This document shows positions 1 through 16,538 of a stretch of DNA of 16,538 bases, one piece after another. Each line of letters opens with the position of its first letter. Position 1 is the stretch's first letter. Both the position numbers and the translations under genes were made by a program. This DNA is from a virus (lineage: Duplodnaviria; Heunggongvirae; Uroviricota; Caudoviricetes). The notes under the pieces are model-generated. The model was not told the origin of the DNA and made no database searches. It worked only from the letters and a program-made list of their open reading frames with translations. The DNA is taken from IMG/VR virus record IMGVR_UViG_2541047850_000009, one strand, 5' to 3'.

Positions 1-1230
1 ATGAGCAGAGCACTTAACAAACTGAGCGATACACAGCTGAGGAAAATCAACGGCACACCCGCCCAAAAAACAGCCTTTCTTAATGACGGTGGAAACCTGA
101 GCGTCAGGCATTCAACCAGTGGCCTTTTAACCTGGTATTTCACTTACAGGGCCGGAACGGGAAGGGGGGCACCACCGGAACGCATTAAGCTGGGAAATTA
201 TCCTGATCTGAGCCTGAAATCAGCCAGGGAAAAAGCCGCCCAGTGTCGCGCATGGCTGGCAGAGGGGAAAAATCCACGTCATGAGCTTAATTACACCGTA
301 CAGGAAGCGTTAAAGCCGGTAACGGTTGGTGATGCGCTCACCTACTGGCTTGAGTCGTACGCAAAGGAAAACCGTGTGGATTATGACCCACTGAAAAAGC
401 GGCTAAATAATCACGTAATACAGCACATTGGCCCTATGCCGCTGGATAAATGCGAGCTACGGCACTGGCTGGCCTGTTTTGATCGGGTGGCAAAGCAAGC
501 CCCTGTTTCCGCCGGGTTCCTGCTACAGACATGCAAGCAGGCGCTTAAGTTCTGCCGGAAGCGGCGCTATGCAATCAGCAACGTTCTTGATGATATGAGT
601 GTGGCGGACGTTGGGAAAAAACCGGATATAAGCGAGCGTGTCTTAAGCAACAAAGAACTTGGCGAATTATTGCAGGCACTGGACAAAAAAATATTCTCCC
701 CCTACTACATCGCGCTAATCCGCCTCCTGATTGTGTTCGGATGCCGGACGGTCGAACTTAGGTTATCGGAGATCGGCGAGTGGGATTTTACCGAAATGCT
801 CTGGACTGTTCCGAAGGAGCACAGCAAAACGAAGGTAGCCATATTCCGGCCCATACCGGAAGCAATACTGCCGTTCGTCACGCAGCTGGTGGAGCAGAAC
901 AAGCACACGGGCTTATTGCTGGGGGAAGTGAAACAGGAAACAAGCGTGTCGCAGTACGGCAGATTAGCGCACAGGAGGCTAAATCACCCTCACTGGTCAC
1001 TACATGACATCCGGCGCACCTTTACAACGATGCTGAACGATTTAGGCGTGGATCCTCACGTCGTGGAGCAGCTTACAGGCCACCAGATGCCAGGAATGCA
1101 GCGAGTTTATAATCATTCCCGTTATCTGGATGCTAAACGCAATGCGCTGGATATGTGGATGGAGCGGTTAGGGATACTGGCGGGAACACATGAAAACGTA
1201 ACCGCACTACCAGTAGCCAGAAGAAAATAA
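1..1230 (+). CDS. int: Tyrosine-type site-specific integrase (P4 / CP4-57-like)
   Basis: 409-aa ORF. C-terminal catalytic region carries the conserved tyrosine-recombinase pattern (HDIRRTF, LTGHQ, terminal VYNHSRY with the catalytic Tyr). N-terminal domain is typical of P4-type integrases. Confidence 0.9.
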   Translation: MSRALNKLSDTQLRKINGTPAQKTAFLNDGGNLSVRHSTSGLLTWYFTYRAGTGRGAPPERIKLGNYPDLSLKSAREKAAQCRAWLAEGKNPRHELNYTVQEALKPVTVGDALTYWLESYAKENRVDYDPLKKRLNNHVIQHIGPMPLDKCELRHWLACFDRVAKQAPVSAGFLLQTCKQALKFCRKRRYAISNVLDDMSVADVGKKPDISERVLSNKELGELLQALDKKIFSPYYIALIRLLIVFGCRTVELRLSEIGEWDFTEMLWTVPKEHSKTKVAIFRPIPEAILPFVTQLVEQNKHTGLLLGEVKQETSVSQYGRLAHRRLNHPHWSLHDIRRTFTTMLNDLGVDPHVVEQLTGHQMPGMQRVYNHSRYLDAKRNALDMWMERLGILAGTHENVTALPVARRK

Positions 1231-1263: not shown

Positions 1264-1286
1264 GATATGCGAACAGATACAACGTG

Positions 1287-1323
1287 CAACAATGAGCAAC
1301 AATGTGGAACAACTACGAACAAG
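1287..1323 (-). repeat. Array of 10-bp-periodic direct repeats (minus-strand reading TTGTTC/TTGTTG + N4); candidate operator array
   Basis: Plus strand reads gcaacaa, gcaacaa, ggaacaa, cgaacaa at 10-bp spacing. The reverse complement matches 7465..7489 at 23 of 25 positions. Confidence 0.5.
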
Positions 1324-1593
1324 AGGCGAAAAAGCGTACGGATTTATAAGTGGCTGATTTTTAATGTGTTACTGGTTTTTATACACTAGCGAATCACTCT
1401 TTAAAGAGCGAGAAAAAAGGCATGGAACAATATTTTATGCCTTTGTATTAACATGAATTTAAAAGATTTTATTCTTACTGTTTCATTTTCTGTAAATCAT
1501 ACATCCTCAGTATTTGCCATTCATCACTCTAGCGGGAACAATACGACACAATAAGACACCTGATGACTCTTTAAGAAACGAAAGGGGGCAATA

Positions 1594-1782
1594 GTGTTAA
1601 GCACTGATCGGTTTATACGTGAAAAAGAATGCAAAAAACTAACCGGCCTTAGCCGTACGTGTCGCTACCGCCTGGAAAAGGCCGGACAATTCCCATCACG
1701 TCGTAAACTTGGCGGTCGTTCCGTTGGCTGGTCTTTATCCGAGGTTCTGGCCTGGAAGGATAGCTGCAAGGCAGTTCATTAA
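1594..1782 (+). CDS. alpA: AlpA/Vis-family winged-helix transcriptional regulator (excisionase-like)
   Basis: 62-aa ORF with GTG start 5 nt after AAAGGGGG. The motif LTGLSRTCRYRLEKAGQFP...KLGGRSVGW matches the AlpA-family pattern (GLSRSTIYR...G.FP.P.KLG.R.V.W). Confidence 0.85.
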   Translation: MLSTDRFIREKECKKLTGLSRTCRYRLEKAGQFPSRRKLGGRSVGWSLSEVLAWKDSCKAVH

Positions 1783-3682: not shown

Positions 3683-3982
3683 ATGAGAACATATTTATCT
3701 GGCTTGACTGCCAGCGGTTATGCACACCCCCAAATTATCCCCGGCGCTATTTATCTGGATAAGAACGGTAACAGAGTAACGGTAAAAGAACTGATGTTTG
3801 ACCGAGTGTATTTTATCCGTGATGGCTATTCATTTCTTAGTTCGCTGAACGTGGAGATCTTTATTAGCAGATTCAGGCGGGAAATCCCGCTTTCCAGAAA
3901 TAACCATGTGTCATGTATGGATGTTGATAAAAAACTACAGGAACTAAAAAACATGATTGCCGCGTGGAGAGAGCAGAAATGA
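3683..3982 (+). CDS. Hypothetical protein (99 aa), AT-rich gene
   Basis: ATG 6 nt after the previous stop. Its stop overlaps the primase start (ATGA). No family recognised. Confidence 0.5.
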   Translation: MRTYLSGLTASGYAHPQIIPGAIYLDKNGNRVTVKELMFDRVYFIRDGYSFLSSLNVEIFISRFRREIPLSRNNHVSCMDVDKKLQELKNMIAAWREQK

Positions 3983-6102
3983 AAAAAGCGCCAAATTTAA
4001 AACACCAGCCACGTGACAAAATGACGGAAGTCATCATTTTTGCGGGTAGTGATGCGTGGGCACATGCGAAGCAGTGGCAGGAACAGGACGGGCGACTGGC
4101 TGGCGACAGCGTGCCTCCTGTCTGGCTTGGAGAGCAACAACTTGCCGAACTGGATAAGCTGCAAATTGTGCCGGAAGGCCGAAAATCAGTACGCATATTC
4201 AGGGCCGGACATCTTGAGCCAGTAATGATCAAGGCGATTGGTCAGAAGCTGGCGGCGGCAGGCGTACAGGATGCAAATTTTTACCCTGATGGAATGCACG
4301 GTCAGGAGGTGGAGAACTGGCGCGAATATCTGGCCCGTGAGCGGCAGAATCTTTCTGATGGTCTGGTTATTGAGTTTCCGGTAAAGAAAAAAGATACCGG
4401 AAGCCATAGCGATGACGAATTAAAGCCACGCGTTGAAAGTCGCGCCGATGGTGTTTTCTGGGTAACGCCCAAAGTGGATAAGCAGTCAGGCGAAATTATC
4501 CGGCCTGAGACGTGGTTATGTTCTCCGCTTGAACTACTGGGAACGGGGACGATCGGTAAAGAGCATTACCGCGTGATGCGCTGGAAAAAAACCGCAAACC
4601 ATGAAGTCATCACAATGGCGATCCCGTGTGGTGGTATCGGCGACCGTGACGGCTGGCGGTTACTTAAAGATCACGGGCTGAACGTGACAACCAACGGCAA
4701 ATACAGGGCAATCCTGGCGGACTGGATGCAGTTAAGCGGAAGCCATGAGGAATGGCAGTTAAGCACAACAACGGGCTGGCATTTTGGCGCGTACATCATG
4801 CCGGACGGTTCGATCATTGGTGAATCTGAAAAACCGATCCTGTTTACCGGAAAAAGCGCCGCGATTAACGGTTATTCCGTGGCGGGCACGGCGGATGGCT
4901 GGCGCGACAGCGTGGCGCGGCTGGCTGGCGGTAATGCCTCAATGATGCTGGGTGTGGCAACGTCACTGGCAGCGCCTTTAATTGGCCTTGTGGGTGCTGA
5001 CGGCTTCGGGGTGCATCTTTTCGAACAGTCATCGGCAGGTAAGACCACCACGCAGAACATCGCATCAAGTTTATGGGGAGAGCCGGACGCGCAGCGGCTG
5101 ACCTGGTACGGCACGGCGTTAGGTATTGCCAATGAGGCCGAGGCCCATAATGACGGGCTTTTACCACTGGATGAGATAGGCCAGGCCGGAAATGCGCGGG
5201 AAGTGTCAACGTCTGCTTATACGCTGTTTAACGGTTCAGGGAAATTGCAGGGGGCGAAGGATGGCGGCAACAGGGAGATCAAACACTGGCGAACGGTGGC
5301 AATCAGCACCGGAGAAATGGACGTTGAGACATTCCTCAAAAGTGAGGGGATAAAAGTTAAGGCGGGGCAGCTTGTCCGACTGCTTAACGTTCCGATGGAA
5401 AAAGCCACGAAATTTCACGAATACAGCAACGGTAAGGAACATGCTGACGCGTTAAAGGATGCCTGGACAGCAAATCACGGGGCGGCGGGTCGTGAGTGGG
5501 TTAAATGGCTGGCAGGCCACCAGCAGGAGGCAAAGGATACGGTAAGGGAATGCCGCGAACGGTGGCGCAACCTGATACCGGAGAGCTACGGCGAGCAGGT
5601 CCACCGCGTGGGTGAACGTTTCGCCATACTGGAGGCCGCGCTTGTGCTTTCCGGTCATGTAACTGGCTGGGTCGTGCAGGAATGCCGCGACGCGATACAG
5701 CATAACTTTAATGCCTGGGTGAAGGAGTTCGGCACGGGTAACAGGGAATTTAAACAGATGGTTGAACAGGCTGAGGCGTTTTTGTCGTCGTTTGGGTTTA
5801 GCCGCTACCTTCCGTACCCCAATACAGATGAGCGTGATTTACCGATTAAAGAGCTTGCCGGATACAGAAAAGGGAGCATTCGCAACGAAGATGACGAGAT
5901 GCGCTATTACACGTTCCCGCACGTGTTTGAGAGTGAGATAGCGAAGGGATTTAATCCGGCGCATTTTGCGCGTGCCCTGGATGCTGCCGGAATGCTGGAG
6001 AAGGGAAGCGATCGCCGATACAAAAAAAAGGCGCTGGGCAAGATTGGGGGTAAGCAGCATGTTTTTTACGTGCTGATGTTCCAGCCTGATGATGAAGATT
6101 AA
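3979..6102 (+). CDS. Primase-helicase type replication protein (DUF927 / D5-like NTPase, P4 alpha-like)
   Basis: 707-aa ORF. P-loop-like FEQSSAGKTT and Walker-B-like LLPLDEIG in the central region. Sits immediately upstream of an iteron array. Domain family assigned from memory of typical satellite annotations. Confidence 0.75.
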   Translation: MKKAPNLKHQPRDKMTEVIIFAGSDAWAHAKQWQEQDGRLAGDSVPPVWLGEQQLAELDKLQIVPEGRKSVRIFRAGHLEPVMIKAIGQKLAAAGVQDANFYPDGMHGQEVENWREYLARERQNLSDGLVIEFPVKKKDTGSHSDDELKPRVESRADGVFWVTPKVDKQSGEIIRPETWLCSPLELLGTGTIGKEHYRVMRWKKTANHEVITMAIPCGGIGDRDGWRLLKDHGLNVTTNGKYRAILADWMQLSGSHEEWQLSTTTGWHFGAYIMPDGSIIGESEKPILFTGKSAAINGYSVAGTADGWRDSVARLAGGNASMMLGVATSLAAPLIGLVGADGFGVHLFEQSSAGKTTTQNIASSLWGEPDAQRLTWYGTALGIANEAEAHNDGLLPLDEIGQAGNAREVSTSAYTLFNGSGKLQGAKDGGNREIKHWRTVAISTGEMDVETFLKSEGIKVKAGQLVRLLNVPMEKATKFHEYSNGKEHADALKDAWTANHGAAGREWVKWLAGHQQEAKDTVRECRERWRNLIPESYGEQVHRVGERFAILEAALVLSGHVTGWVVQECRDAIQHNFNAWVKEFGTGNREFKQMVEQAEAFLSSFGFSRYLPYPNTDERDLPIKELAGYRKGSIRNEDDEMRYYTFPHVFESEIAKGFNPAHFARALDAAGMLEKGSDRRYKKKALGKIGGKQHVFYVLMFQPDDED

Positions 6103-6124
6103 TCCCCTGTGTGAGGAAAAAAAT

Positions 6125-6463
6125 TGCGGGTTATGCGGGTTATCCTGTGTATAAGTGTATTAAGTGCATGAATATAAAGGAAACCAATAACCCGCACGTA
6201 ACCCGCAAAAGGGCATTTATAACCCGCAAAAGCACGATTATAACCCGCTGGCGAATAACTGAAGTAACACCGGACAGTCATGCGTAACCCGCAGAAAAAA
6301 ACCGTTTGCGGGTTATTTTGAGCGTTTTGCGGGTTACGTGGTGAGCAAATAATAAACAGGGCGTTTTGCAAAATACTGATATAAAAGGATAAAAAATGGT
6401 TAGCACGCTAAGATAACCCAATAACCCGCATAACCCGCACATGTTTCTATATATATATAAATT
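6125..6463. repeat. Replication origin candidate: iteron array (9-bp TAACCCGCA in both orientations) plus AT-rich tract
   Basis: TGCGGGTTA at 6125, 6134, 6307, 6328. TAACCCGCA at 6188, 6199, 6220, 6285, 6422, 6431, with degenerate copies at 6241 and 6414. AT-rich tttctatatatatataaatt at 6443..6463. Confidence 0.7.
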
Positions 6464-6473
6464 GAGGTGGCAA

Positions 6474-6725
6474 ATGACCAGAACACGCAGAGACAGAACA
6501 GAGCCAAAATATAAAGCGTTAGACATGACTGAGCACACCTTAAAGGTGGCAATCAGAACGATAGACCGCCACACGCGGGAAGGATACGCGAAGGAACATC
6601 CCGACCTGATAAGCGCATTCATGACCACGACGGCGGCAAACTTTGCCACGCTGACAGAGCGGGAGATTGCCGAAGCGGAACAGGTAACAACCATCAACGT
6701 TAAAACCGGAGAGCAGACAGCATGA
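6474..6725 (+). CDS. Hypothetical basic small protein (83 aa)
   Basis: ATG after GAGGTG. Stop overlaps the ssb start (ATGA). Lies between the origin and ssb. No family recognised. Confidence 0.5.
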   Translation: MTRTRRDRTEPKYKALDMTEHTLKVAIRTIDRHTREGYAKEHPDLISAFMTTTAANFATLTEREIAEAEQVTTINVKTGEQTA

Positions 6726-7132
6726 CAGCACAGATAGCGGCTTACGGGCGGCTGGTGGACGACCCGCAGGTAAAACAGACCAGCAAGGGCACACCGATGA
6801 CGCTGGCGCGTATGGCGGTATCTTTGCCATGCAGCCAGGCACAGGACGGACAGGCGACGTTATGGTTATCGGTCATCGCATTTGGCAAACAGGCCGACCA
6901 ACTGGCAGGACATGAGAAAGGCAACGTAATCAGCGTATCCGGCGTGATGCAGATAAGCCAGTGGACCGGACAGAACGGGGAGACGCGTCAGGGTTATCAG
7001 GTCATTGCAGACAGCGTAATCAGTGCCCGTGCGGCACGTCCTGGCGGGAACAGACGCAAAACCACAGGCACACAGGGTAATCAGCCACCAGCGGGAGACG
7101 ATGACCCCTACGGTGATGATATTCCGTTCTGA
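6722..7132 (+). CDS. ssb: Single-stranded DNA-binding protein
   Basis: 136-aa ORF. OB-fold-like N-terminal region, glycine/glutamine-rich linker, and the diagnostic acidic tail DDDPYGDDIPF. Confidence 0.85.
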   Translation: MTAQIAAYGRLVDDPQVKQTSKGTPMTLARMAVSLPCSQAQDGQATLWLSVIAFGKQADQLAGHEKGNVISVSGVMQISQWTGQNGETRQGYQVIADSVISARAARPGGNRRKTTGTQGNQPPAGDDDPYGDDIPF

Positions 7133-7144
7133 GGGGTGGGGACG

Positions 7145-7417
7145 ATGGTACATGACCGCATAGCGGAAGAACTGGAGGCGAAAGGCTTTTACCGGAGAGC
7201 GTCGGCGCGATGGGGTGAAGTCATGCAACTGGTGGAGACAGACAAGGAACGGCATCACATCACGATGCGACGGCTGGAATGTTCCAGGAAGGCACAGAGG
7301 CCACCGGAGCCGCCGGATAATTACGGAGACCTGAAAAAGGCGGTCGATCGCACTTATGCCGAAATGGGTATGGATGGTGCTGGTGATGAAATATGGCGAA
7401 ATTACCAGGACAGATAA
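7145..7417 (+). CDS. PerC-family-like transcriptional regulator
   Basis: 90-aa ORF from the ATG at 7145 (the track start at 7136 is GTG). N-terminal motif DRIAEELEAKGFYRRASARWGEV resembles the PerC/Pch signature (AE.LE..G.WRRAA.RW) as I recall it. Confidence 0.5.
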   Translation: MVHDRIAEELEAKGFYRRASARWGEVMQLVETDKERHHITMRRLECSRKAQRPPEPPDNYGDLKKAVDRTYAEMGMDGAGDEIWRNYQDR

Positions 7418-7423
7418 TCACAC

Positions 7424-7446
7424 AGCCGGAGCAATCCGGCTTTTTG
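7424..7446 (+). terminator. Rho-independent terminator after the PerC-like gene
   Basis: Stem GCCGGA / TCCGGC with GCAA tetraloop, followed by TTTTT. Confidence 0.6.
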
Positions 7447-7464
7447 TCATGTTTTGTAAATTAT

Positions 7465-7494
7465 TTGTTCGTGGTTGTTCCACGTTGTTCGCTG
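7465..7494 (+). repeat. Three head-to-tail 10-bp repeats TTGTTCgtgg TTGTTCcacg TTGTTCgctg; candidate operator array about 210 bp upstream of the capsid gene
   Basis: Exact 10-bp periodicity. Matches the reverse complement of 1299..1323 at 23 of 25 positions and 14939..14953 at 15 of 15. Confidence 0.5.
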
Positions 7495-7566
7495 ACCGGA
7501 TCGGCATATTTTACCCGAACTGAATCATGATTATTCTCGCCAGTGGTGCCAGGACGCTGGGGCCAC

Positions 7567-7614
7567 TTTCCCGCCTGTTAATGTGCTCGCCAATATTCAT
7601 TACCAGGCGGGAAA
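7567..7614 (+). promoter_or_regulatory. 11-bp inverted repeat TTTCCCGCCTG ... CAGGCGGGAAA (26-nt spacer) in the capsid-operon leader
   Basis: Read directly from the sequence. Could be an RNA stem-loop or a dyad protein-binding site. Confidence 0.3.
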
Positions 7615-7704
7615 ATGATCGGTGCGATTGCTGATTTCCTTATGAAAAACGGTTGAGTGTTTGCCGCGTCCTGGAGTTCCTTACTTAACTTCAGGACTTT
7701 TTTT

Positions 7705-8862
7705 ATGCCGAGAATAATCGAATTACGCCAGCAGAAAACCGCCATTAAAAATCAGATGCGCGACATGCTGGAGAACGCGGAAAAAGAAAACCGCAGCCTT
7801 AACGATGCTGAGGGCGCAAAATTTGACGAATTACGCGCTAAAGCTGAATCCCTCGATAAAGACATTTCCCGCCTTGAAGCCATTGCAGACGAAGAGCGCA
7901 GTAAACCAGGCAAAAACAGCCAGACCACTGACCCCGCAGAACTACGCAACTACATTCTGACAGGTGAAACCCGCGCATTAAGTACAGGCGTTCCCGCTGA
8001 TGGTGGTTATACCGTTATCCCCGAACTGAACACCGAAATCATGCGAATGCTGGCGGATGAGTCCACCATGCGCCGCATCTGTACCGTGAAGAAAATCAGC
8101 AGCAACGAGTTTAAGCAGCTTGTTTCCGCTGGCGGTGCGACCGTTAACCACGGTGAAGAGGGTAAGACACGCGAACAGACCAGCACCCCGCAGATTAACG
8201 AGGTGAGCATTAAGCTGTATCCGGTCTATGCGTACCCGCGCACCACACAGGAAATCGTGGATTTTTCCGATGTGGACATCCTTTCATGGCTGACGGGTGA
8301 GATTGGCGACACCTTCACGGAAACCGAAGAAAGCGATCTGGTTGTGGGCGACGGTGACAAAAAAGCAAAAGGTTTTTTATCCGTACCCCGTGCAGAGAAG
8401 AACGACAAAGAGCGTGATTTTGGTACGTTGCAGGTAATTAAACCTTCCGAATCTCTGGCGTGGACATCTGCGGACCCGCTGATCGACCTGAAATTTGCAT
8501 TACGTAAAAAATACCGCAAAAACGCGGTCTGGGTGGTTAACTCCACGACGGCGGCAAAACTTCAGAAGGTGAAGAACGCGAACGGTGATTACATCTGGCG
8601 CGACCGTTTACAGGCGGGTGATCCTGATACGTTACTGGGCCTTCCGGTCGAATATCTGGAGTTTATGCCGGATAACGTTATTGCCCTGGGTGACTTCAAA
8701 CGCGGTTACTACATTGTTGATCACGAAACAGGTGTTCGCACCAGACCGGACAACCTCACAGAGCCGGGCTTCATCAAAATTTTCACGCAGAAATATTTAG
8801 GCGGTGGCGTGGTGGATTCGAACGCGATCAAGATTCTGGAACTGCCACAGGACGACGATTAA
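7705..8862 (+). CDS. Major capsid protein, HK97 fold, with N-terminal scaffold-like (delta) coiled-coil domain
   Basis: 385-aa product. N-terminal 90 aa is coiled-coil-like and charged (IIELRQQKTAIKNQMRDMLENAEK...). Followed by a prohead protease gene. Start chosen at the ATG at 7705 rather than the upstream track start. Confidence 0.88.
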   Translation: MPRIIELRQQKTAIKNQMRDMLENAEKENRSLNDAEGAKFDELRAKAESLDKDISRLEAIADEERSKPGKNSQTTDPAELRNYILTGETRALSTGVPADGGYTVIPELNTEIMRMLADESTMRRICTVKKISSNEFKQLVSAGGATVNHGEEGKTREQTSTPQINEVSIKLYPVYAYPRTTQEIVDFSDVDILSWLTGEIGDTFTETEESDLVVGDGDKKAKGFLSVPRAEKNDKERDFGTLQVIKPSESLAWTSADPLIDLKFALRKKYRKNAVWVVNSTTAAKLQKVKNANGDYIWRDRLQAGDPDTLLGLPVEYLEFMPDNVIALGDFKRGYYIVDHETGVRTRPDNLTEPGFIKIFTQKYLGGGVVDSNAIKILELPQDDD

Positions 8863-8873
8863 CAGCATACAGA

Positions 8874-8901
8874 AGGGGCTTAAAAGCCCCTTTAGTGTTT
8901 T
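8874..8901 (+). terminator. Stem-loop after the capsid gene (partial terminator or attenuator, or stabilising hairpin)
   Basis: Stem AGGGGCT / AGCCCCT with TAAA loop, followed by ttagtgtttt. Confidence 0.4.
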
Positions 8902-8916
8902 ATGGGTGAAAAAATT

Positions 8917-9474
8917 ATGAAGAGTATGGAAATCCGGTCATCGGAAATCACTACCAGCGGAGCCGGTACGCTGACGGGCTACGTTGTTCGCTGGGATAAG
9001 CTTTCAGAACTGCTATGGGGGGAGTTTTACGAAAAATTCCAGCGGGGGGCGTTTACTGAGTGGCTTGCGGCGGGTAATGACGTTCGCGGCCTGTATGAGC
9101 ATGACCACAGCATGTTACTGGGGCGCACCCGTTCCGGCACGCTGAAACTGGAAGAGGACGAAACAGGGTTACGCTTTGAACTGACCCCACCGGATACCAG
9201 TACAGGGCGCGACGTTATCGAACTGGTTAAGCGTGGGGACATCTCGGGGATGAGCTTTGGCTTTCGCTCCCGTAAGGATGTATGGGATACCACAACAGAT
9301 CCATGCGTGCGCACCGTGCTGGTGGCGGAACTATACGAAATTACCGTTACATCCGTACCGGCTTACCCTGATTCCGGCGTGGAGCTGGCCCGCCGCTCCC
9401 TGTACGAGCAGCACCCCGAAAAAATGCCGCGTGCGGATAATCGCCGCTGGTGGGCGGATTTAGCGGGGGTGTGA
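8917..9474 (+). CDS. Prohead (capsid maturation) protease, HK97 family
   Basis: About 185 aa with HK97-protease-like length and position directly after the capsid gene. Alternative in-frame start at 8902. Confidence 0.8.
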   Translation: MKSMEIRSSEITTSGAGTLTGYVVRWDKLSELLWGEFYEKFQRGAFTEWLAAGNDVRGLYEHDHSMLLGRTRSGTLKLEEDETGLRFELTPPDTSTGRDVIELVKRGDISGMSFGFRSRKDVWDTTTDPCVRTVLVAELYEITVTSVPAYPDSGVELARRSLYEQHPEKMPRADNRRWWADLAGV

Positions 9475-9475
9475 T

Positions 9476-10687
9476 ATGTGGCCTTTCAGAAGAAAAAAAG
9501 AGCAGCGCAGCATGACGCTTGATGAGTTTATGGCGCTGGCTGGCACATCGAACACGGGGGCGGGTGAGTACGTATCATCGGGGACAGCGGAATCACTGCC
9601 CGCCGTCATGAACGCCGTGACGGTCATCTCTGAGGCGGTGGCTACCATGCCGTGTTACCTGTACCTGGTACGCAATGAGAAGGGGAAGGAGGCCCGAGAG
9701 TGGTTTGATTCTCATCCGGTCGATCACATCCTCAACGAGCGCCCGAACGCATGGCAAACCCCCTACCAGTTTAAGCGAATGATGATCCGCCACTGCCTGT
9801 TAAACGGTAATGCTTATGCGGTGATTCGGTGGGGGCGTGATGGTTTTCCGGTGGCTTTACATCCTTACCCGCCGCAGTCGGTGAACGTGGAGCAGACAGG
9901 TGAGCATAACTGGCGCTACTGCATCACTGACGCCTACACCGGAAACACCCGCAACTATTTACCGTGGGAGGTTCTCCACCTTCGTTACTCCACGGATGAC
10001 GGTTTTATGGGGCGCTCACCTGTAACCATCTGCCGCGAATCGCTGGGGCTTGGGCTGGCCCAACAACGCCACGGCGCGAGCGTGATGCGTGATGGCATGA
10101 TGGCGGCAGGGGTTATCACGTCAGGCGAGTGGCTGGACGGCGTGAAGGGTAAACAGGCATTAGCCGCACTGGAACGCTACAAAGGGGCCAGAAACGCCGG
10201 AAAAACGCCCATCCTTGAAGGGGGTATGAGCTATCAGCAGCTGGGCATGAGTAATCAGGATGCTGAATGGCTGGCCTCCCGTCGCTTCACCATTGAAGAC
10301 ATCGCCCGAATGTTCAACGTCTCGCCGATTTTTTTGCAGGAATACAGCAACAGCACCTACAGCAATTTCAGCGAGGCAAGCCGCGCATTTCTCACCATGA
10401 CGATGCGCCCGTGGCTGGCGAACTTTGAGCAGCAGATAAAAAACGCCCTGCTGGTGGCCTCGCCTGTACCTGGTATCCGGTATCAGGTGGAGTTTGACAG
10501 CGCGGACCTGTTACGGGCCACACCTGGCGAACGCTTTGCCACCTATGAACGCGGCATCAAATCCGGCGTTATGTGCCCGAACGAAGCCCGCGAACGTGAA
10601 GGGCTGTCCCCGCGTGATGGTGGTGATGAGTTCAGCCAGGCATGGAAACAGGAAGTAAAAATCAGCGAGGGAGAAAAACCGGAATGA
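9476..10687 (+). CDS. Portal protein (HK97-type)
   Basis: 403-aa ORF with portal-like length and composition. Start is 1 nt after the protease stop. Flanked by head genes. Confidence 0.85.
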   Translation: MWPFRRKKEQRSMTLDEFMALAGTSNTGAGEYVSSGTAESLPAVMNAVTVISEAVATMPCYLYLVRNEKGKEAREWFDSHPVDHILNERPNAWQTPYQFKRMMIRHCLLNGNAYAVIRWGRDGFPVALHPYPPQSVNVEQTGEHNWRYCITDAYTGNTRNYLPWEVLHLRYSTDDGFMGRSPVTICRESLGLGLAQQRHGASVMRDGMMAAGVITSGEWLDGVKGKQALAALERYKGARNAGKTPILEGGMSYQQLGMSNQDAEWLASRRFTIEDIARMFNVSPIFLQEYSNSTYSNFSEASRAFLTMTMRPWLANFEQQIKNALLVASPVPGIRYQVEFDSADLLRATPGERFATYERGIKSGVMCPNEAREREGLSPRDGGDEFSQAWKQEVKISEGEKPE

Positions 10688-11022
10688 ACATAGGGCGACT
10701 GCGTGACAGGATAACGATTCAGACCCTGAAACAGACCAGGGATATAACCGGCGAAATACTCGAAACGTGGGTGGACGGTCACACACTCTGGGCAAGCGTG
10801 AACATGATCAGCAGCAAGGAGGCCATTTCATCGGGTGCAGAACTGGCGACTGGAACGGTAAGGATATGGATACGCTACAGGAAGGACATCAACGCCACCA
10901 GCCGGATAAAGGTCAATACGGGGCCGCTGGCGGGGCGTGTACTGAATATCATCGGGCAGCCGCTGCCGGATGCCGCCAGGACACGCCTTGAAATTCTTTG
11001 TCGTGAGGGCGCGGAAAAATGA
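10684..11022 (+). CDS. Head closure / head-tail joining protein
   Basis: 112 aa. N-terminal GRLRDRITIQ...TRD...W matches the head-closure family pattern (G.LR.R.TIQ....TRD). ATGA overlap with the portal stop. Confidence 0.75.
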   Translation: MNIGRLRDRITIQTLKQTRDITGEILETWVDGHTLWASVNMISSKEAISSGAELATGTVRIWIRYRKDINATSRIKVNTGPLAGRVLNIIGQPLPDAARTRLEILCREGAEK

Positions 11023-11315
11023 CAGAAGAACTTATCACCCTGGAAGAAGTGAAACTCCATTGCCGCATCGATGGCGACGAGGAAGACCAGTTAATCAGCG
11101 GATACATTGCCGCATCGCTTGAGGCGTGCCAGATACATATAGGCAGGCGCTTTGATGACGGGCTGGCGTTCACGCCAGCCATAAAGATTGGCTGCATGAT
11201 GTTTATCGCTCACCTGTATGAAAATCGCCAGATTGTCGCGGATAACGCAAAAACACGCGTACCCATGACGATAGGCGCACTCTGGACGGCTTACCGTGAT
11301 GTGGGGGTGTACTGA
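11019..11315 (+). CDS. gp6-like head-tail connector protein
   Basis: 98 aa. N-terminal ITLEEVKLHCRIDGDEEDQLISGYIAAS matches the gp6-like connector pattern (ITLEE.K.HLRID.DDED.LI...I.AA). ATGA overlap with the previous gene. Confidence 0.7.
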   Translation: MTEELITLEEVKLHCRIDGDEEDQLISGYIAASLEACQIHIGRRFDDGLAFTPAIKIGCMMFIAHLYENRQIVADNAKTRVPMTIGALWTAYRDVGVY

Positions 11316-11755
11316 TGCCGTGGCAACCATTAAGACGATGCACAGAACCAGGCTGTAACAGGCGCGTGAAGTCCGGCAAGTGTGAGGAGCACAGGCGGGC
11401 GGCATGGCGTGCAGAGGATGCCAGACGAGGACACCGCCGCGCGCGTGGGTACTCCAGACAGTGGGACAAATACCGCGCCATGTATCTGAGTAAAAACCCG
11501 TTATGCGTGCGATGCCTTGAGAAGGGGATATATACGCCCGCCGTGGTGGTGGATCACATTATCCCCATCGATGGCGGCGATGATGTTCTCTTCTGGCCCG
11601 AATGGAACCATCAACCATTGTGCCAGGCGTGTCATAACCAGAAAACGAAATGGCTTGATCTGGCAACAAAAAGCAAGCGTGCCGCAGGTGGATTTCGTGA
11701 AGAGGAAGAACGGGCCGCTAACCGCAATAACTGGATGTATGACGCTGATGAATGA
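11315..11755 (+). CDS. HNH endonuclease (terminase-associated)
   Basis: Paired Cys motifs (CTEPGC, CVRC, CQACHNQ) and the His-Asn-His core VVDHIIP...WNHQPLC. Sits immediately upstream of terS/terL, as in cos-type HK97-like phages. Confidence 0.88.
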   Translation: MPWQPLRRCTEPGCNRRVKSGKCEEHRRAAWRAEDARRGHRRARGYSRQWDKYRAMYLSKNPLCVRCLEKGIYTPAVVVDHIIPIDGGDDVLFWPEWNHQPLCQACHNQKTKWLDLATKSKRAAGGFREEEERAANRNNWMYDADE

Positions 11756-11921
11756 GCGGAAACAAAACCGCCTTATCCGTGGACTTATAAGGCAGCGTGA
11801 CGCATGGAAGACACAGGAAACAGGGCATAAAGATAAAGCGTCAGGACGCGCAGAACGCATCACAGCGAAGCGATTAACCGACCGTGACCGCGAGGTTATG
11901 GAATGTTTCCGCAATCGCTGA
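11748..11921 (+). CDS. Possible small basic protein (57 aa, MNERKQNRLIRGLIRQRDAWK...)
   Basis: Only the part of track ORF 11517..11921 that does not overlap HNH. No convincing RBS. May instead be non-coding DNA holding the packaging site. Confidence 0.22.
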   Translation: MNERKQNRLIRGLIRQRDAWKTQETGHKDKASGRAERITAKRLTDRDREVMECFRNR

Positions 11922-11924
11922 TGA

Positions 11925-12044
11925 GGCTGTATGACGGGGTGGGGGGCGTTTTCAGGACAAACCCGACCCCGCCGGGCACCGACCGCCTCCTCAAATTTTT
12001 ATGCACGGGAATTTTTTGAAAAATAATCTGGCGAAAAAATAAGC
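11925..12044. other. Candidate cos / packaging-initiation region upstream of terS
   Basis: G-rich (gacggggtggggggcg) then C-rich (cccgaccccgccgggcaccgaccgcctcc) segment, then an AT-rich tract. Lies between HNH and terS, where HNH-dependent cos sites usually sit. Confidence 0.3.
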
Positions 12045-12401
12045 ATGTCAAGACCACCGAAAGCCCCCGCCTACCTGGATGACATCGCCGTGAAGCAGTG
12101 GCGGGAAAAATCGCGGCAGCTTGCGGAACGGGGAGACCTGACCCCCGCCGACTGGAGCAATCTGGAACTGTATTGTGTCAACTACTCCATTTACCGGAAA
12201 GCCGTTGCAGACCTTGCGGCGCGCGGGTTCAGCATTGTTAACAGTCAGGGCGGCGAGAGCAGAAACCCCGCATTAAGCGCAAAATCCGACGCTGAAAGGG
12301 TGATGATAAAAATGGCCTCCTTGCTCGGTTTTGACCCGATAAGCCGCCGTAAAAATCCACCGGAAACAGAAGAAGAGGACGAGCTTGACCGCCTGGAATA
12401 A
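12045..12401 (+). CDS. terS: Terminase small subunit (P27-family-like)
   Basis: 118 aa, directly upstream of and overlapping terL. Acidic C-terminal tail. N-terminus (AVKQWREKSRQLAERGDLTPADWSNLELYC) resembles P27-type TerS. Confidence 0.75.
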   Translation: MSRPPKAPAYLDDIAVKQWREKSRQLAERGDLTPADWSNLELYCVNYSIYRKAVADLAARGFSIVNSQGGESRNPALSAKSDAERVMIKMASLLGFDPISRRKNPPETEEEDELDRLE

Positions 12402-14046
12402 GTACGCAGAAGACGTAAAAACGGGCAAAATTCCGGCCTGTAAACGGCTGAAACAGGCCGTTAAACGGTACTTTTCGGACCTTGAAAGCCCCCTTTACAC
12501 GTTCGATCGTGAGGTTGTGGAGCGGTTTATTGCCTTTTCCAGGGTGTGCCCGCACGTAAAAGGGCCGATGCGTGGCAGACCCATTGAGCTGGAGCCGTGG
12601 CAGCAGTTCGCCTTTGCGTGCATCCTCGGCTTTAAGGTTAAGGCCACCGGACGGCGCAAATACACGAGCGCCTTTATCGAAGTGCCGCGCAAAAATGCGA
12701 AATCCACGACCGCCGCGATTCTGGCTAACTGGTTTCTGATTATGGAGAACGGTCAGCAGGATATCTACACCGCAGCGGTGAGCCGTGACCAGGCGCGGAT
12801 CGTCTTTGATGATGCGCGTCAGATGTGCCTTTTATCCCGACCGTTACGCAGGCGGGTGAATATTCAGGCGCATAAGGTGATGCACCCGAAAAGCAACAGC
12901 CTGTTAAAGCCGCTGGCAGCAAAAGCGGCAACCATCGAGGGAACAAACCCCAGCCTTTCCATCGTGGACGAATACCACTTGCACCCCGATAACGGCGTTT
13001 ATTCCGCGCTTGAGCTGGGGATGGGCGCACGTCCCGAAGGGCTGTTATTTGCTATTACCACATCAGGCAGTAACGTCGTTTCAGCCTGTAAGCAGCACTA
13101 TGATTATTGCTGCCAGATCCTGGACGGCGAAGAGGTCAACGATTCAATTTTTGTACTGATTTACGAACTGGACGACGAAAACGAGGTTGATGATCCGGCG
13201 ATGTGGATAAAGGCGAACCCTAATATTGATGTTTCCGTGGATCGTGAAAAACTGGCCTCAACCATCCAGAAAGCGCGGGGTATTCCGTCGCAGTGGGTGG
13301 AGATGATGACAAAGCGATTTAATATCTGGTGCCAGGGGGCTACCCCGTGGATGGGTAACGGCGCATGGGCTGAGTGTGCCGGAACGTTCACGGAGGAAGA
13401 TTTACACGGCCAGGAGTGTTACGCGGGGCTGGACTTATCATCAACCAGCGATATTTCCAGCGTGTGCTATGCCTTTCCGGTCGGTAAAACCATTATGCTG
13501 GTTTCCCGTCACTATCTGCCGGAATTTCAGCTACAGAACCCCGCCAATAAAAACCGCGCCATCTATCGTCAGTGGGCTAAAGCAGGCTGGATACGCACAA
13601 CGCCTGGCGACTGCATTGATTACGACCGGATCAGAGATGACATCATGCAGGACGCGGAGAAATTTAATATCAGGCTGGTGGGCTTTGATACGTGGAACGC
13701 CACGCATCTCAGAACGCAATTACAGGGGGCAGGTTTTGAGGTGGAGCCGTTCCCGCAAACCTACCTCAGATTCAGTCCGGCGGCGAAATCGTTCGAAGTT
13801 TTTGTTAACCGCAGGGTGATTGTGCATCGTGGCGATCCGGTGTTGTCCTGGTCGATGAGTAACGTCGTGATGCAGAGTGACGCGAACGCCAATATCAAGC
13901 CGAACAAGAAAAAATCACCGAACAAGATAGACCCGAGCGTGGCGGCGCTGATGGCGTTTGGTACATTCCAGGCAGAGCATGAGGATTTTGCTTTTGATAT
14001 AAGCGACAGCCACCGCCAGAAACTGGAAGAATTTAGCGGGGTGTAA
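12385..14046 (+). CDS. terL: Terminase large subunit
   Basis: 553-aa ORF. P-loop-like VPRKNAKST in the N-terminal ATPase region and an acidic nuclease-type C-terminal half. Apparent TTG start at 12385, 5 nt after GAGGA, overlapping the terS end. Confidence 0.88.
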   Translation: MTAWNKYAEDVKTGKIPACKRLKQAVKRYFSDLESPLYTFDREVVERFIAFSRVCPHVKGPMRGRPIELEPWQQFAFACILGFKVKATGRRKYTSAFIEVPRKNAKSTTAAILANWFLIMENGQQDIYTAAVSRDQARIVFDDARQMCLLSRPLRRRVNIQAHKVMHPKSNSLLKPLAAKAATIEGTNPSLSIVDEYHLHPDNGVYSALELGMGARPEGLLFAITTSGSNVVSACKQHYDYCCQILDGEEVNDSIFVLIYELDDENEVDDPAMWIKANPNIDVSVDREKLASTIQKARGIPSQWVEMMTKRFNIWCQGATPWMGNGAWAECAGTFTEEDLHGQECYAGLDLSSTSDISSVCYAFPVGKTIMLVSRHYLPEFQLQNPANKNRAIYRQWAKAGWIRTTPGDCIDYDRIRDDIMQDAEKFNIRLVGFDTWNATHLRTQLQGAGFEVEPFPQTYLRFSPAAKSFEVFVNRRVIVHRGDPVLSWSMSNVVMQSDANANIKPNKKKSPNKIDPSVAALMAFGTFQAEHEDFAFDISDSHRQKLEEFSGV

Positions 14047-14615: not shown

Positions 14616-14938
14616 GACCATGAAACTACGGAAACTACCCGTAGTTTGGGTAGTAAGAGTAACACCCAGATTTTGGGGCTTACTCGTGATACCCAAATTT
14701 GGGGTATCAGTGGCAACCATAACGACTTTCGTTACGGTTGATGCTTTTACCCCATTGGGGGAAAGGTATTACGATAATCATAACACCTACCGAACAGGTA
14801 AAGCCCACCAGCCTGATTAACGTTTAACCGGAAAAAAATTCCGGTAGGTGGGGATCCCCATATCGACATTAACGCCCCTCATGAATTGGTGCGCTTCCCC
14901 CTGGAAAGATGATCCGCCTGTATATTTCTTGTGTCTAT

Positions 14939-14958
14939 TTGTTCCACGTTGTTTCATA
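14939..14958 (+). repeat. Third copy of the TTGTTC repeat motif (TTGTTCCACG TTGTTTCATA), about 120 bp from the phoQ stop
   Basis: 15 of 15 identity with 7475..7489. Confidence 0.45.
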
Positions 14959-14971
14959 CAGTGCACCGAAC

Positions 14972-14993
14972 GGTGTAGTCACTGGTGTAGTCA
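14972..14993 (+). repeat. Tandem direct repeat GGTGTAGTCA (two copies, 12-bp period)
   Basis: Read directly: cGGTGTAGTCAct GGTGTAGTCAtt. Confidence 0.4.
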
Positions 14994-15077
14994 TTTTGCG
15001 ATTTTTGGCACTTTTTGCGGTGCAGATTACTTAATTAAATCAATGGTTTGTCTTGATATAGTGATAAAAGGACATAT

Positions 15078-16538
15078 TTATTCATCTTTCGGCGCAGAAT
15101 GCTGGCGACCAAAAATCACTTCCATCCGCGCACCGCCCAGCATGCTCTCTCCGGCGACGATTTTACCCTCATATTGCTCGGTGATTTCGCGGGCTACCGC
15201 CAGCCCCACACCTTGCCCAGGGCGTAAAGTATCAACCCGTTGACCACGGTCGAAAATGACCTCTCGCTTGCTTAATGGAATACCGGGGCCATCATCCTCG
15301 ACCACAATATAGAGATGCTCGTCGGTTTGCCTTGCAGAAATTTCGACAAACTCGAGGCAATATTTACAGGCGTTATCCAGCACGTTGCCCATCACTTCGA
15401 CAAAATCATTCTGCTCACCAACAAAGCTGATTTCTGGCGAGATATCGAGAGAGATATTGACCCCTTTGCGTTGATACACTTTGTTCAGCGCCGAGGTGAG
15501 ATTGTCCAACAGTGGCGCGACCGGATGCAGCTCGCGGCTAAGCAATGTCCCGCCGCGCATACTGGCACGATGCAGGTAGTAGCCAATTTGCTGTGAAATG
15601 CGGCTGATTTGCTCCAGCATTACCGGCTCAGCATCACTGACGCTCATCTTCTCACTACGCAGAGAACGCAGCGTACTTTGCAGCACCGCCAGTGGCGTTT
15701 TCAGACTATGGGTCAGGTCGGTGAGCGTTGTACGATATTTGTCGTAACGTTCGCGTTCACTTTTTAACAGTCGGTTCAGGTTTCGTACCAGACTGGTCAG
15801 TTCTCGCGTTGTGGCTGGATTGAGCAATTCACGGTTATGTTCTTCCAGTTCGCGGACTTCTTTTGCCAGGGCTTCGATGGGGCGTAAACTCCACCAGGCG
15901 GCGACCCACAGCAGCGGGATCACTAACAGCAGATTGGCTGAGAGCACATAGATAAACCAGCTCCAGACCATATAGGAACTTTTTAGCTCCACCGGAATGG
16001 TATCCACCACCACAATGGTTAACTTTGGCATCCGCGATGTTGCCGGGTAGACGTTTACCGCCACCGAGTGGGTCATCTCCGCGTCGTCATCATCTTCCCG
16101 CACTTCCTGCAACTGTTGCTGTATCGAATGATCTCCACTCAGCAAGAGGCTGGTATCGTTAACATCCGCTTCAATTTCATGAAAACCATTCGATTTCAGC
16201 CAGTCAGGCTGGATCATCTTCATCAGCCAGGGCACGTCACGTTGCGCCCATAAAAGCTGCCCGTTCTCATCATAAATTAGTGTCATCGTGGGGCTTTGCT
16301 TGTCGATATTTTCGGGTAACTCGACATGCAACTTATTGTTTTCCCACTTCGCAAGGGTATAGAACAGATTGCTCTCGCCACGTAACAGCCGAAACGTGGT
16401 TTTATCGAAACTGACGCTATAACCGATCAGCGCAACCATTCCGTAGGCAAGCGAAAGCACCAATACTACTGCTGCCGTTGCTAACAGAAAACGTACCCGC
16501 AGCGAGAGCGGGAAAAAAAGATGCAGTAATTTTTTCAT
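15078..16538 (-). CDS. phoQ: Sensor histidine kinase PhoQ of the PhoP/PhoQ two-component system
   Basis: 486-aa product recognised as PhoQ: two transmembrane segments, a periplasmic sensor with the acidic patch [10 protein letters not shown], the H-box [12 protein letters not shown], and an ATPase domain with DDGPGIP and GQGVGL. Complete ORF with its start at the window end. Confidence 0.96.

Follow-up and report, generated by a model that had tools for sequence, protein, structure and literature searches.

Putative AlpA operator arrays at the att arms, upstream of alpA and before the capsid operon of a capsid-forming phage-inducible chromosomal island

Introduction

Three head-to-tail copies of the hexamer TTGTTC, set exactly 10 bp apart, lie 215 nt before the capsid ATG (7706) in the DNA analysed here, a stretch of 16,538 nucleotides (IMG/VR record IMGVR_UViG_2541047850_000009) that is called the window throughout. 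The same word recurs at a 10-bp period between int and alpA and again near the right end of the element. These arrays, designated sites A, B and C, respectively (Table 1), raise the question of which protein recognizes them and what a single recognition event would control. An earlier note on this DNA, made from the sequence alone, had named the small AlpA-like protein of the element as the candidate binder and had suggested that one protein could couple excision to the switching on of the capsid genes.

According to Pfam annotation, the window encodes a P4-type integrase, AlpA, a DUF4222 protein, a DUF927 Rep, SSB, PerC, and an HK97-type head/packaging module, whose operon is ordered capsid, protease, portal, head completion protein, connector, HNH, TerS, and TerL. 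E. coli chromosome is found from ~15070 onward, beginning with phoQ, and in relatives for which the left flank is present the island sits between roxA and phoQ and spans ~15.3 kb. The att core was located by alignment of both island-chromosome junctions with the unoccupied site of BW25113. The presence of int, alpA, rep, and a complete HK97-type module, the lack of tail genes, a size of ~15 kb, and a fixed chromosomal site identify the window, on its sequence, as a capsid-forming phage-inducible chromosomal island (PICI) of the EcCIEDL933 type. Because the segment from 6100 to 9000 is ~96% identical to islands in O157:H7 genomes, it is taken to be a close relative of EcCIEDL933, the prototype of the capsid-forming PICIs (bioRxiv 10.1101/2022.09.08.507074).

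Table 1. Positions of the features discussed in the text, given in the window unless another locus is named.
Feature	Position	Strand	Description
int	1..1230	+	P4-type tyrosine integrase; PF13356, 8e-18 (N-terminal arm-binding domain); PF00589, 1.4e-16
Site B	1277..1333	-	5-6 units between int stop and alpA, inverted relative to alpA: TTTTTC 1328-1333 (weak), TTGTTC 1317-1322 and 1307-1312, TTGTTG 1297-1302 and 1287-1292, TTGTAT 1277-1282
alpA	1594..1782	+	62-aa AlpA/Vis/TorI-type winged-helix protein; PF05930, 5.7e-17
rep	3964-6102		DUF927 helicase-type Rep with a helix-turn-helix at its C-terminus
perC	7136-7417		PerC (Pfam)
Intrinsic-terminator-like hairpin and T-run	7424..7446	+	After perC, upstream of site A
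Site A	7465..7490	+	Three exact TTGTTC units (7465, 7475, 7485), 10-bp period, before the capsid operon
Capsid/packaging operon	7706..14046	+	HK97-type; Pfam matches, coordinates from the ORF list and the L001 annotation
Site C	14929..14958	+	attR (P) arm: TTGTGT 14929 (weaker), TTGTTC 14939, TTGTTT 14949
Doubled 12-mer, GGTGTAGTCACT / GGTGTAGTCATT	14972..14995	+	Right arm, after site C; motif occurs once in the window
att core, GGACATATTT	15070-15079	+	Marks the right island end; overlaps phoQ at its 3' end
TTGTTC arrays downstream of alpA	L013 12210-12225; L072 1455-1480		cspD-type islands
TorR boxes, CTGTTCATAT x2	L247 1473-1492		torC promoter

AlpA as an excisionase-type protein

AlpA carries the PHROG label 'excisionase and transcriptional regulator' and is 42% identical to Vis of P4 and 29% identical to TorI over 42 residues. 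Residues Y28 and R45 of TorI, whose mutation impairs binding to attL (PMC3509656), align with Y25 and R42 of AlpA, and both are conserved. In an AlphaFold2 model of AlpA obtained from the single sequence (pLDDT 78), a strand and two helices are followed by a wing of two strands and one last helix. Among known structures, the model comes closest to the GIsul2 excisionase (8c3t, TM-score 0.73-0.78), and the next matches are RdfS, Pukovnik Xis, and MerR-type domains. As modelled, AlpA has an excisionase fold, and the Pfam match (PF05930), the homology to TorI and Vis, and the predicted fold all mark it as a small winged-helix excisionase encoded by the element itself. A search of the genome contigs with AlpA found three loci, two of which are unrelated elements.

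Published genetics of related islands indicates what AlpA can do. In EcCICFT073, AlpA supplied alone from a plasmid activates PalpA and triggers excision, and AlpA is needed for excision, while expression of a Pint-lacZ fusion is unchanged by AlpA (PMC6092414). In EcCIEDL933, arabinose-induced alpA has been used for capsid production (bioRxiv 10.1101/2025.02.11.637232); since induction of alpA yields capsids, AlpA appears to be sufficient, directly or indirectly, for the capsid operon. No description of the DNA target of AlpA was found in the literature searched.

The TTGTTC arrays

Sites A and B share 23 of 25 nt in a repeat search (7465-7489 versus 1298-1322, 92%), and sites A and C share 15 of 15, the sequence TTGTTCCACGTTGTT being present at both 7475-7489 and 14939-14953. 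The same word thus stands at att and at promoter regions remote from att. Within the window, the paired motif TTGTTCN4TTGTTC, allowing up to one mismatch, occurs five times versus 0.15 expected, a count that was reached in 0 of 200 shuffles, and all five matches fall in sites A, B, and C. The single hexamer is not enriched in the window overall (15 versus 11 expected); its density is 3.94 per kb in non-coding DNA versus 0.48 per kb in coding DNA (binomial p = 1.5e-4). When the window is scanned without regard to motif, for any hexamer present three times at 10-11 bp, these arrays are the only ones recovered. Together with a fourth array described below, there are four sites at which 3 to 6 units follow one another head to tail with a 10-bp period, that is, at least three repeats about one helical turn apart. 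In an IMG/VR scan with TTGTTC x3, most of the matches outside the enterobacterial PICIs are unrelated perfect tandem repeats in other phages.

These results bear out the positions that had been given for the three arrays as well as the 23-of-25 and 15-of-15 matches between them. The earlier note had also stated that a similar density of the motif inside coding regions would speak against its proposal; because TTGTTC is concentrated in non-coding DNA, that objection fails. The arrays had, however, been described as lying at three intergenic control points, and although all three are real, site C belongs to the attR arm and is no promoter-type control point. The extent of two arrays had been underestimated as well, since site B has 5-6 units (1277-1333) and site C has the extra weaker unit at 14929.

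The att arms

Site C is located ~120-140 nt from the att core and is kept at the right end of every related island examined. A fourth array, which would fall just outside the window, is seen in relatives 55-90 nt 5' of the int start codon, where it reads TTGTTC cagc TTGTTT cacg TTGTAG ccct TTGTGC (L001 2912-2947). Both arrays are accompanied by a second element. On the right arm, site C is followed by a doubled 12-mer (Table 1); on the left arm, GGTGTAGTTAAT x2 comes directly after the fourth array (L001 2953-2976), giving the order core, TTGTTC(G/C) array, doubled 12-mer, int ATG. Each attP arm bears the doubled 12-mer, GGTGTAGTnAnT x2, once, and on both arms the array sits 5-13 nt 5' of it. 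As both ends carry the pair, a module consisting of a 10-bp-period array and a doubled 12-mer would be present on each attP arm of the excised circle, in the same orientation, with the centres of the doublets ~91 bp before and ~140 bp after the att core. With the core mapped against the empty site, the array is thus positioned inside the att arm, beside putative integrase arm sites.

The word that makes up the doubled 12-mer varies with the integrase clade. It is GGTGTAGT here and at the cspD site, where the Int N-terminal domain is 80% identical, TGTATTGC in a helper-embedded PICI (HE-PICI; 52% identical), and GGGGGCA in P4 (30%). Its position is that of the P4 'attP arm sequence repeat' and of the HE-PICI doublet (PMC10111431), and the doublets supply four half-sites, which is the number that an Int tetramer needs. 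For these three reasons (the change of word with the integrase, the match to the P4 position, and the four half-sites) the doubled 12-mer is probably an arm-type site for the N-terminal domain of Int, and the product of int is proposed as the partner of the att-arm sites.

The assignments could in principle be exchanged, such that the TTGTTC arrays would be the arm-type sites of the Int N-terminal domain, another protein would occupy the doubled 12-mer, and Int would regulate at sites A and B. The integrase does have an arm-binding domain (PF13356), two of the four arrays are on att arms, arm-type sites are often adjacent direct repeats, and Tommasini et al. left the choice between Int and AlpA open for the doubled motif (PMC10111431). 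We nevertheless consider this arrangement unlikely. It is the doubled 12-mer, and not TTGTTC, that tracks the integrase clade and that P4 annotates as the arm repeat, and it is the doublets whose four half-sites fit an Int tetramer. TTGTTC is retained in the HE-PICI island despite the changed doublet word, and an HE-PICI whose Int is 42% identical keeps an exact TTGTTC x3 before its capsid gene. In addition, a distance on the kilobase scale separates sites A and B from the core (>1.4 kb for site B), and in KplE1 the GTTCG-type sites belong to the excisionase rather than to the integrase.

Two other observations concern the arms. A sigma-70-like promoter on the minus strand (14909-14937; TAGACA, 17 nt, GATCAT) abuts site C and faces an 86-aa ORF (14720-14460) for which no family match was found; this promoter, too, might be controlled by a protein bound at site C. 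Moreover, a scan of IMG/VR with the GGTGTAGT doublet also picks up low-GC phages with Tn916-like integrases, elements that are non-homologous but have a similar layout. In three loci that were checked (L145, L203, L178), GGTGTAGTnAnTGGTGTAGT stands beside the 3' end of the Tn916-like integrase gene, and in L157/L203 and L237 10-bp-period arrays of other words (GCATATCTT x3, TATCGYA x3) are found just before GGTGTAGTnAnTGGTGTAGT. The array-plus-doublet layout recurs in this unrelated integrase family.

The array upstream of alpA

An alignment of five alleles of the int-alpA spacer, including that of EcCICFT073, which carries an array of the site B type there, allows the hexamers of site B to be compared with the DNA between them. 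Of the 24 hexamer columns, 20 are invariant, and identity over them is 90%; for the 12 spacer columns the figures are 3 and 56% (Fisher p = 0.001); the int-alpA region as a whole averages 74% identity. This pattern suggests that selection acts on the hexamer word upstream of alpA while the spacers drift. The inverted array is present in 28 of the 31 loci whose AlpA is at least 87% identical, and in L236, one of the three exceptions, it is degenerate.

A different situation is found in islands at the cspD/clpS site, which have an AlpA allele that is 66-68% identical. In none of nine such islands is there a TTGTTC array upstream of alpA; in five of the nine it is replaced by AATATC-N4 x3 (L004 2791-2818, L007 3791-3818, L100, L102, L164). 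In the cspD/clpS islands, TTGTTCG arrays are retained on the two att arms and ahead of the capsid gene, and two islands of the cspD type have a TTGTTC array of 2-3 units immediately after alpA, where the next block of genes begins (Table 1).

Within the PICI family, conservation of TTGTTC is the same with every allele of Int or AlpA, and because of this invariance, covariation cannot separate AlpA from Int or from a host factor. A host protein, such as a response regulator of the OmpR/PhoB family that would bend the DNA at att and regulate at the two promoters, would agree with the presence of one word in islands with differing Int and AlpA alleles, and there is a precedent for the spacing: TorR recognizes CTGTTCATAT decamers with a 10-bp period, and its boxes in the torC promoter are contiguous and share TGTTC with the arrays. 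A host binder is still quite unlikely. Beyond the PICIs, the word at the equivalent position does change, being TTGTTC for PICI AlpA, YYGTCC for P4 Vis and probably for AlpA of CP4-57, and G(T/A)(T/C)CG for TorI, and this difference among related elements indicates a binder that is encoded by the element. In the PICI arrays, position 7 of the unit is occupied by C or G in 83 cases out of 86 and by A in the other 3, whereas the tor boxes have A at this position, followed by TAT. Finally, it is AlpA alone, supplied from a plasmid, that activates PalpA and triggers excision in EcCICFT073 (PMC6092414).

The int-alpA region of the window also contains a perfect 16-bp palindrome, CAGTATGCGCATACTG, at 1248-1263, in the interval that separates site B from the end of int. 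Some alleles of the alpA spacer (the window, L160, L009) keep this palindrome but that of EcCICFT073 does not, and it could be an operator for a dimeric regulator.

The leader of the capsid operon

Site A is embedded in a block (~7450-7495) that reads TTTTGTAAATTAT-TTGTTC-GYGG-TTGTTC-CASR-TTGTTC-nnTGA and is near-invariant between two lineages of leader. Elsewhere, these lineages are by eye about half identical, with many mismatches and gaps, and the capsid genes that lie behind them are 42% identical. In the aligned sequences, the block is the sole near-invariant stretch between the two lineages. In L092 and L124, homology to the other leaders begins ~20 nt 5' of the array.

The terminator-like hairpin that follows perC has a counterpart in the L004-type leader, where a hairpin and T-run of different sequence occur at the same place. 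Because this hairpin splits the upstream genes from site A, the capsid operon probably has a promoter of its own. A scan for a consensus sigma-70 promoter near site A found none, and for this reason candidate -35 and -10 elements were placed by eye. The candidate promoter, a weak one, consists of TTGTTC at 7485-7490, a 16-nt spacer, and TATTTT at 7507-7512; from this arrangement we infer where the promoter lies. Two hairpins are seen in the capsid leader, at 7564-7617 and 7668-7704, and one of them has 20-nt arms that are 90% complementary. The other is terminator-like, with seven consecutive T; it stops one base short of the capsid ATG and is not kept in the other lineage.

Site A is found only in islands that have an HK97-type packaging module, and classical PICIs with an identical AlpA have no array before their capsid genes. 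Given this distribution, and since small terminases often recognize direct repeats, site A might be thought to be a small-terminase or packaging signal that has no functional relation to the other arrays and has its word in common with them by descent or chance. Such a role is very unlikely, as several points stand against it. The cos site of an HK97-type system, which we presume to lie beside HNH and TerS, would here be expected in the gap at 11755-12045. The matches of site A to site B (23/25) and to site C (15/15) include the spacers, which makes an independent origin unlikely, and the setting of site A is promoter-like, just past a terminator and ~215 nt before the first gene. TerS itself is an unlikely binder, because the arm and alpA arrays also occur in classical PICIs, which have a different packaging module.

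It is extremely unlikely that the arrays are iterons for the replication initiator, which would form an ori and a cis-replication region as the type I repeats TGTTCACC do in P4. There is a superficial likeness to the P4 alpha iteron (TGTTCACC versus TGTTCCAC), and the sites are dispersed, as are ori and crr of P4. The window, however, has a separate, dense field of iterons, ATAACCCGCA, at 6110-6450. Lying just past the end of rep, this field comprises at least 10 copies of (A)TAACCCGCA in direct or inverted orientation and is probably the replication origin of the island. The TTGTTC arrays persist in islands whose replication gene encodes a primase-type Rep or a RepA-type helicase; in all, the arrays accompany three types of Rep and two packaging modules, unchanged, which argues that neither Rep nor TerS is the binder. 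Rep iterons were excluded as an explanation on these two grounds, the different word at 6110-6450 and the constancy of the arrays across the three Rep types.

Relation to known excisionase systems

At the attL of KplE1 (CPS-53), TorI binds five sites with the cores GTTCG, GATCG, and GTCCG; three TorI sites, 10 bp apart, are located directly before the -35 of PintS and are followed by the IntS arm sites and then by intS (PMC2951348). The KplE1 sequence acaGTTCGtcatgGTTCGcttcaGATCGTTGACA was verified in K-12. The PICI units read TTGTTCG or TTGTTCC, the TorI core GTTCG. Like the PICI, the TorI/IntS system has a small winged-helix excisionase, homologous to AlpA, with cooperative GTTCG-type sites spaced 10 bp apart, placed between the core and the Int arm sites and overlapping the int promoter region, and its integrase is of the same type. 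Unlike in the PICI, TorI sites are described on attL only, PintS is repressed, and no structural operon is known to be activated by TorI; the PICI arrays are on both arms and at two internal promoter regions, and AlpA is an activator.

The attP of P4 is likewise laid out as a 10-bp-period array, a doubled 12-mer, and int. In P4, the annotated 'attP arm sequence repeats' consist of doubled 12-mers at distances of 76 and 134 bp from the core, and ahead of the doublet nearer to int the sequence reads TCGTCC tgcg TCTTCC gagg TTGTCC gttg AAATCC. For this YYGTCC array (~3966-4010, minus strand, L243), just 5' of the int-proximal doublet, no annotation was found. Vis, like AlpA, is annotated as both an excisionase and a transcriptional regulator, and it is said to regulate the P4 late promoters, in work attributed to Polo (1996) and Cali (2004). 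P4 differs from the PICI in its word, YYGTCC, in having no capsid of its own, and in a sid-delta-psu operon that is activated mainly by proteins of the Delta/Ogr type. According to one source, Vis bends att DNA and its sites overlap Pint (PMC7498355); another credits it with attP binding in EMSA and footprinting (PMC2603039). In PMC2603039 and PMC2951348, Vis is mostly reported as a negative regulator that also binds RNA. CP4-57 (L008 2745-2795) appears to be similarly built, having a TAGGCCCA doublet and units that are irregularly spaced (11, 9, and 14 nt).

Apl of 186 and Cox of P2 are also dual-purpose excisionases that use direct repeats one turn apart at att and in a promoter region (PMC7498355), and Cox in addition activates a promoter of another element, PLL of P4. 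Unlike AlpA, however, Apl and Cox belong to an unrelated sequence family, repress their own switch region, and have sites of up to 6-7 units.

For HE-PICI, Tommasini, Mageeney and Williams (2023) described a doubled motif, tgTGTATTGCa, 81 and 132 bp from the attP centre (PMC10111431). It agrees with the one described here in being a doubled 12-mer, present once per arm and co-oriented, ~81 bp up and 132 bp down versus ~91 and 140 bp. That paper differs in that the adjacent 10-bp-period array was not reported and Int or AlpA was left undecided as the binder, and the word is TGTATTGC rather than GGTGTAGT.

AlpA of P. aeruginosa shares its name with the PICI protein and is likewise a positive regulator that recognizes a promoter DNA element. 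It has a helix-turn-helix at residues 128-142, forms a ring in the RNA exit channel, and uses a single GGGACG between -35 and -10 (PMC9371919). As that protein is much larger and forms such a ring, a 62-aa AlpA cannot work in the same way. Q-like antitermination of this kind was therefore ruled out, on the size of the P. aeruginosa protein and its single GGGACG element and, further, on the hairpin that abuts the capsid ATG, which is not kept in the second leader lineage.

Lambda Xis sites and TorR boxes resemble the PICI arrays in having a core of TGT(T/A) or GTTC and a spacing of one turn, which hints at possible cross-talk. The cores of lambda Xis, TGTTG and TGTAG, are about one helical turn apart (L248 132-170), and Xis-like words are present among the PICI units, namely TTGTTG, twice, at site B and TTGTAG on the attL arm (L001 2932-2937). 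The arrays might accordingly be docking sites common to AlpA and to the excisionase of a lambdoid helper phage, although this is decidedly unlikely. If it were true, helper Xis, made on prophage induction, would bind site B and would be the helper signal that has been sought for alpA, and helper excision would start the satellite program.

A model for AlpA action

AlpA is probably the protein that binds the TTGTTC arrays, a conclusion that is drawn from homology and from the architecture of the sites. We put the probability of the full reading, in which the TTGTTC(S)NNN arrays are AlpA operator arrays that drive excision, expression of alpA itself, and the capsid genes, at roughly two in three. 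In this model, AlpA, as a small MerR-like protein of the excisionase family, would bind head to tail, one protomer per helical turn, and would bend the DNA. On the att arms, a filament of AlpA beside the doubled GGTGTAGT arm sites of Int would assist Int in assembling the excisive complex. At site B, the array would mediate the known positive autoregulation of AlpA. At site A, where the last unit is at the -35 position, a weak promoter lying beyond the perC terminator would be switched on by AlpA. In this way, a single helper-induced protein could bring about excision, self-locking expression, and capsid production.

Four points do not fit this model simply: the islands with AATATC, the inversion of site B, the unresponsive Pint, and the classical PICIs that lack an array before their capsid genes. 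All arrays other than site B point toward the downstream gene, and Pint of EcCICFT073 does not respond even though an array is present 55-90 nt 5' of int. These misfits do not contradict binding by AlpA; the regulatory logic varies among islands. The proposal of the earlier note, that AlpA binds the arrays and thereby couples excision to the capsid genes, remains the best-supported reading, given TorI, P4, the fold, and the genetics, although the picture it drew was incomplete. The array on the left arm, 5' of int, and the doubled GGTGTAGT motif had been missed, and while the inverted array between int and alpA is present as claimed, the significance of its inversion relative to alpA, and its absence with the other alpA allele, had been overlooked.

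Conclusions

The kind of mechanism suggested here is a familiar one, in which a dual-function excisionase acts through direct-repeat operators located both at att and at promoters; Vis, Apl, Cox, and TorI are precedents. What is new is a set of predicted binding sites for the PICI AlpA family, which had not been described before in the literature searched. AlpA acts as master switch in the phage-inducible chromosomal islands of Gram-negative bacteria, and an operator TTGTTC(S)NNN with a 10-bp period at four sites would explain its roles in excision, self-induction, and capsid production by one interaction. The published 'doubled attP motif' would then be assigned to the integrase and not to AlpA. 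The array signature would help to annotate att arms and AlpA regulons in many uncharacterised islands, and the TTGTTC sites would offer mutational handles with which excision could be uncoupled from capsid expression; such handles would be of use given that the capsids released by these islands, filled with DNA but lacking tails, cross species boundaries. More generally, the arrangement suggests how capsid-forming islands tie capsid production to excision.
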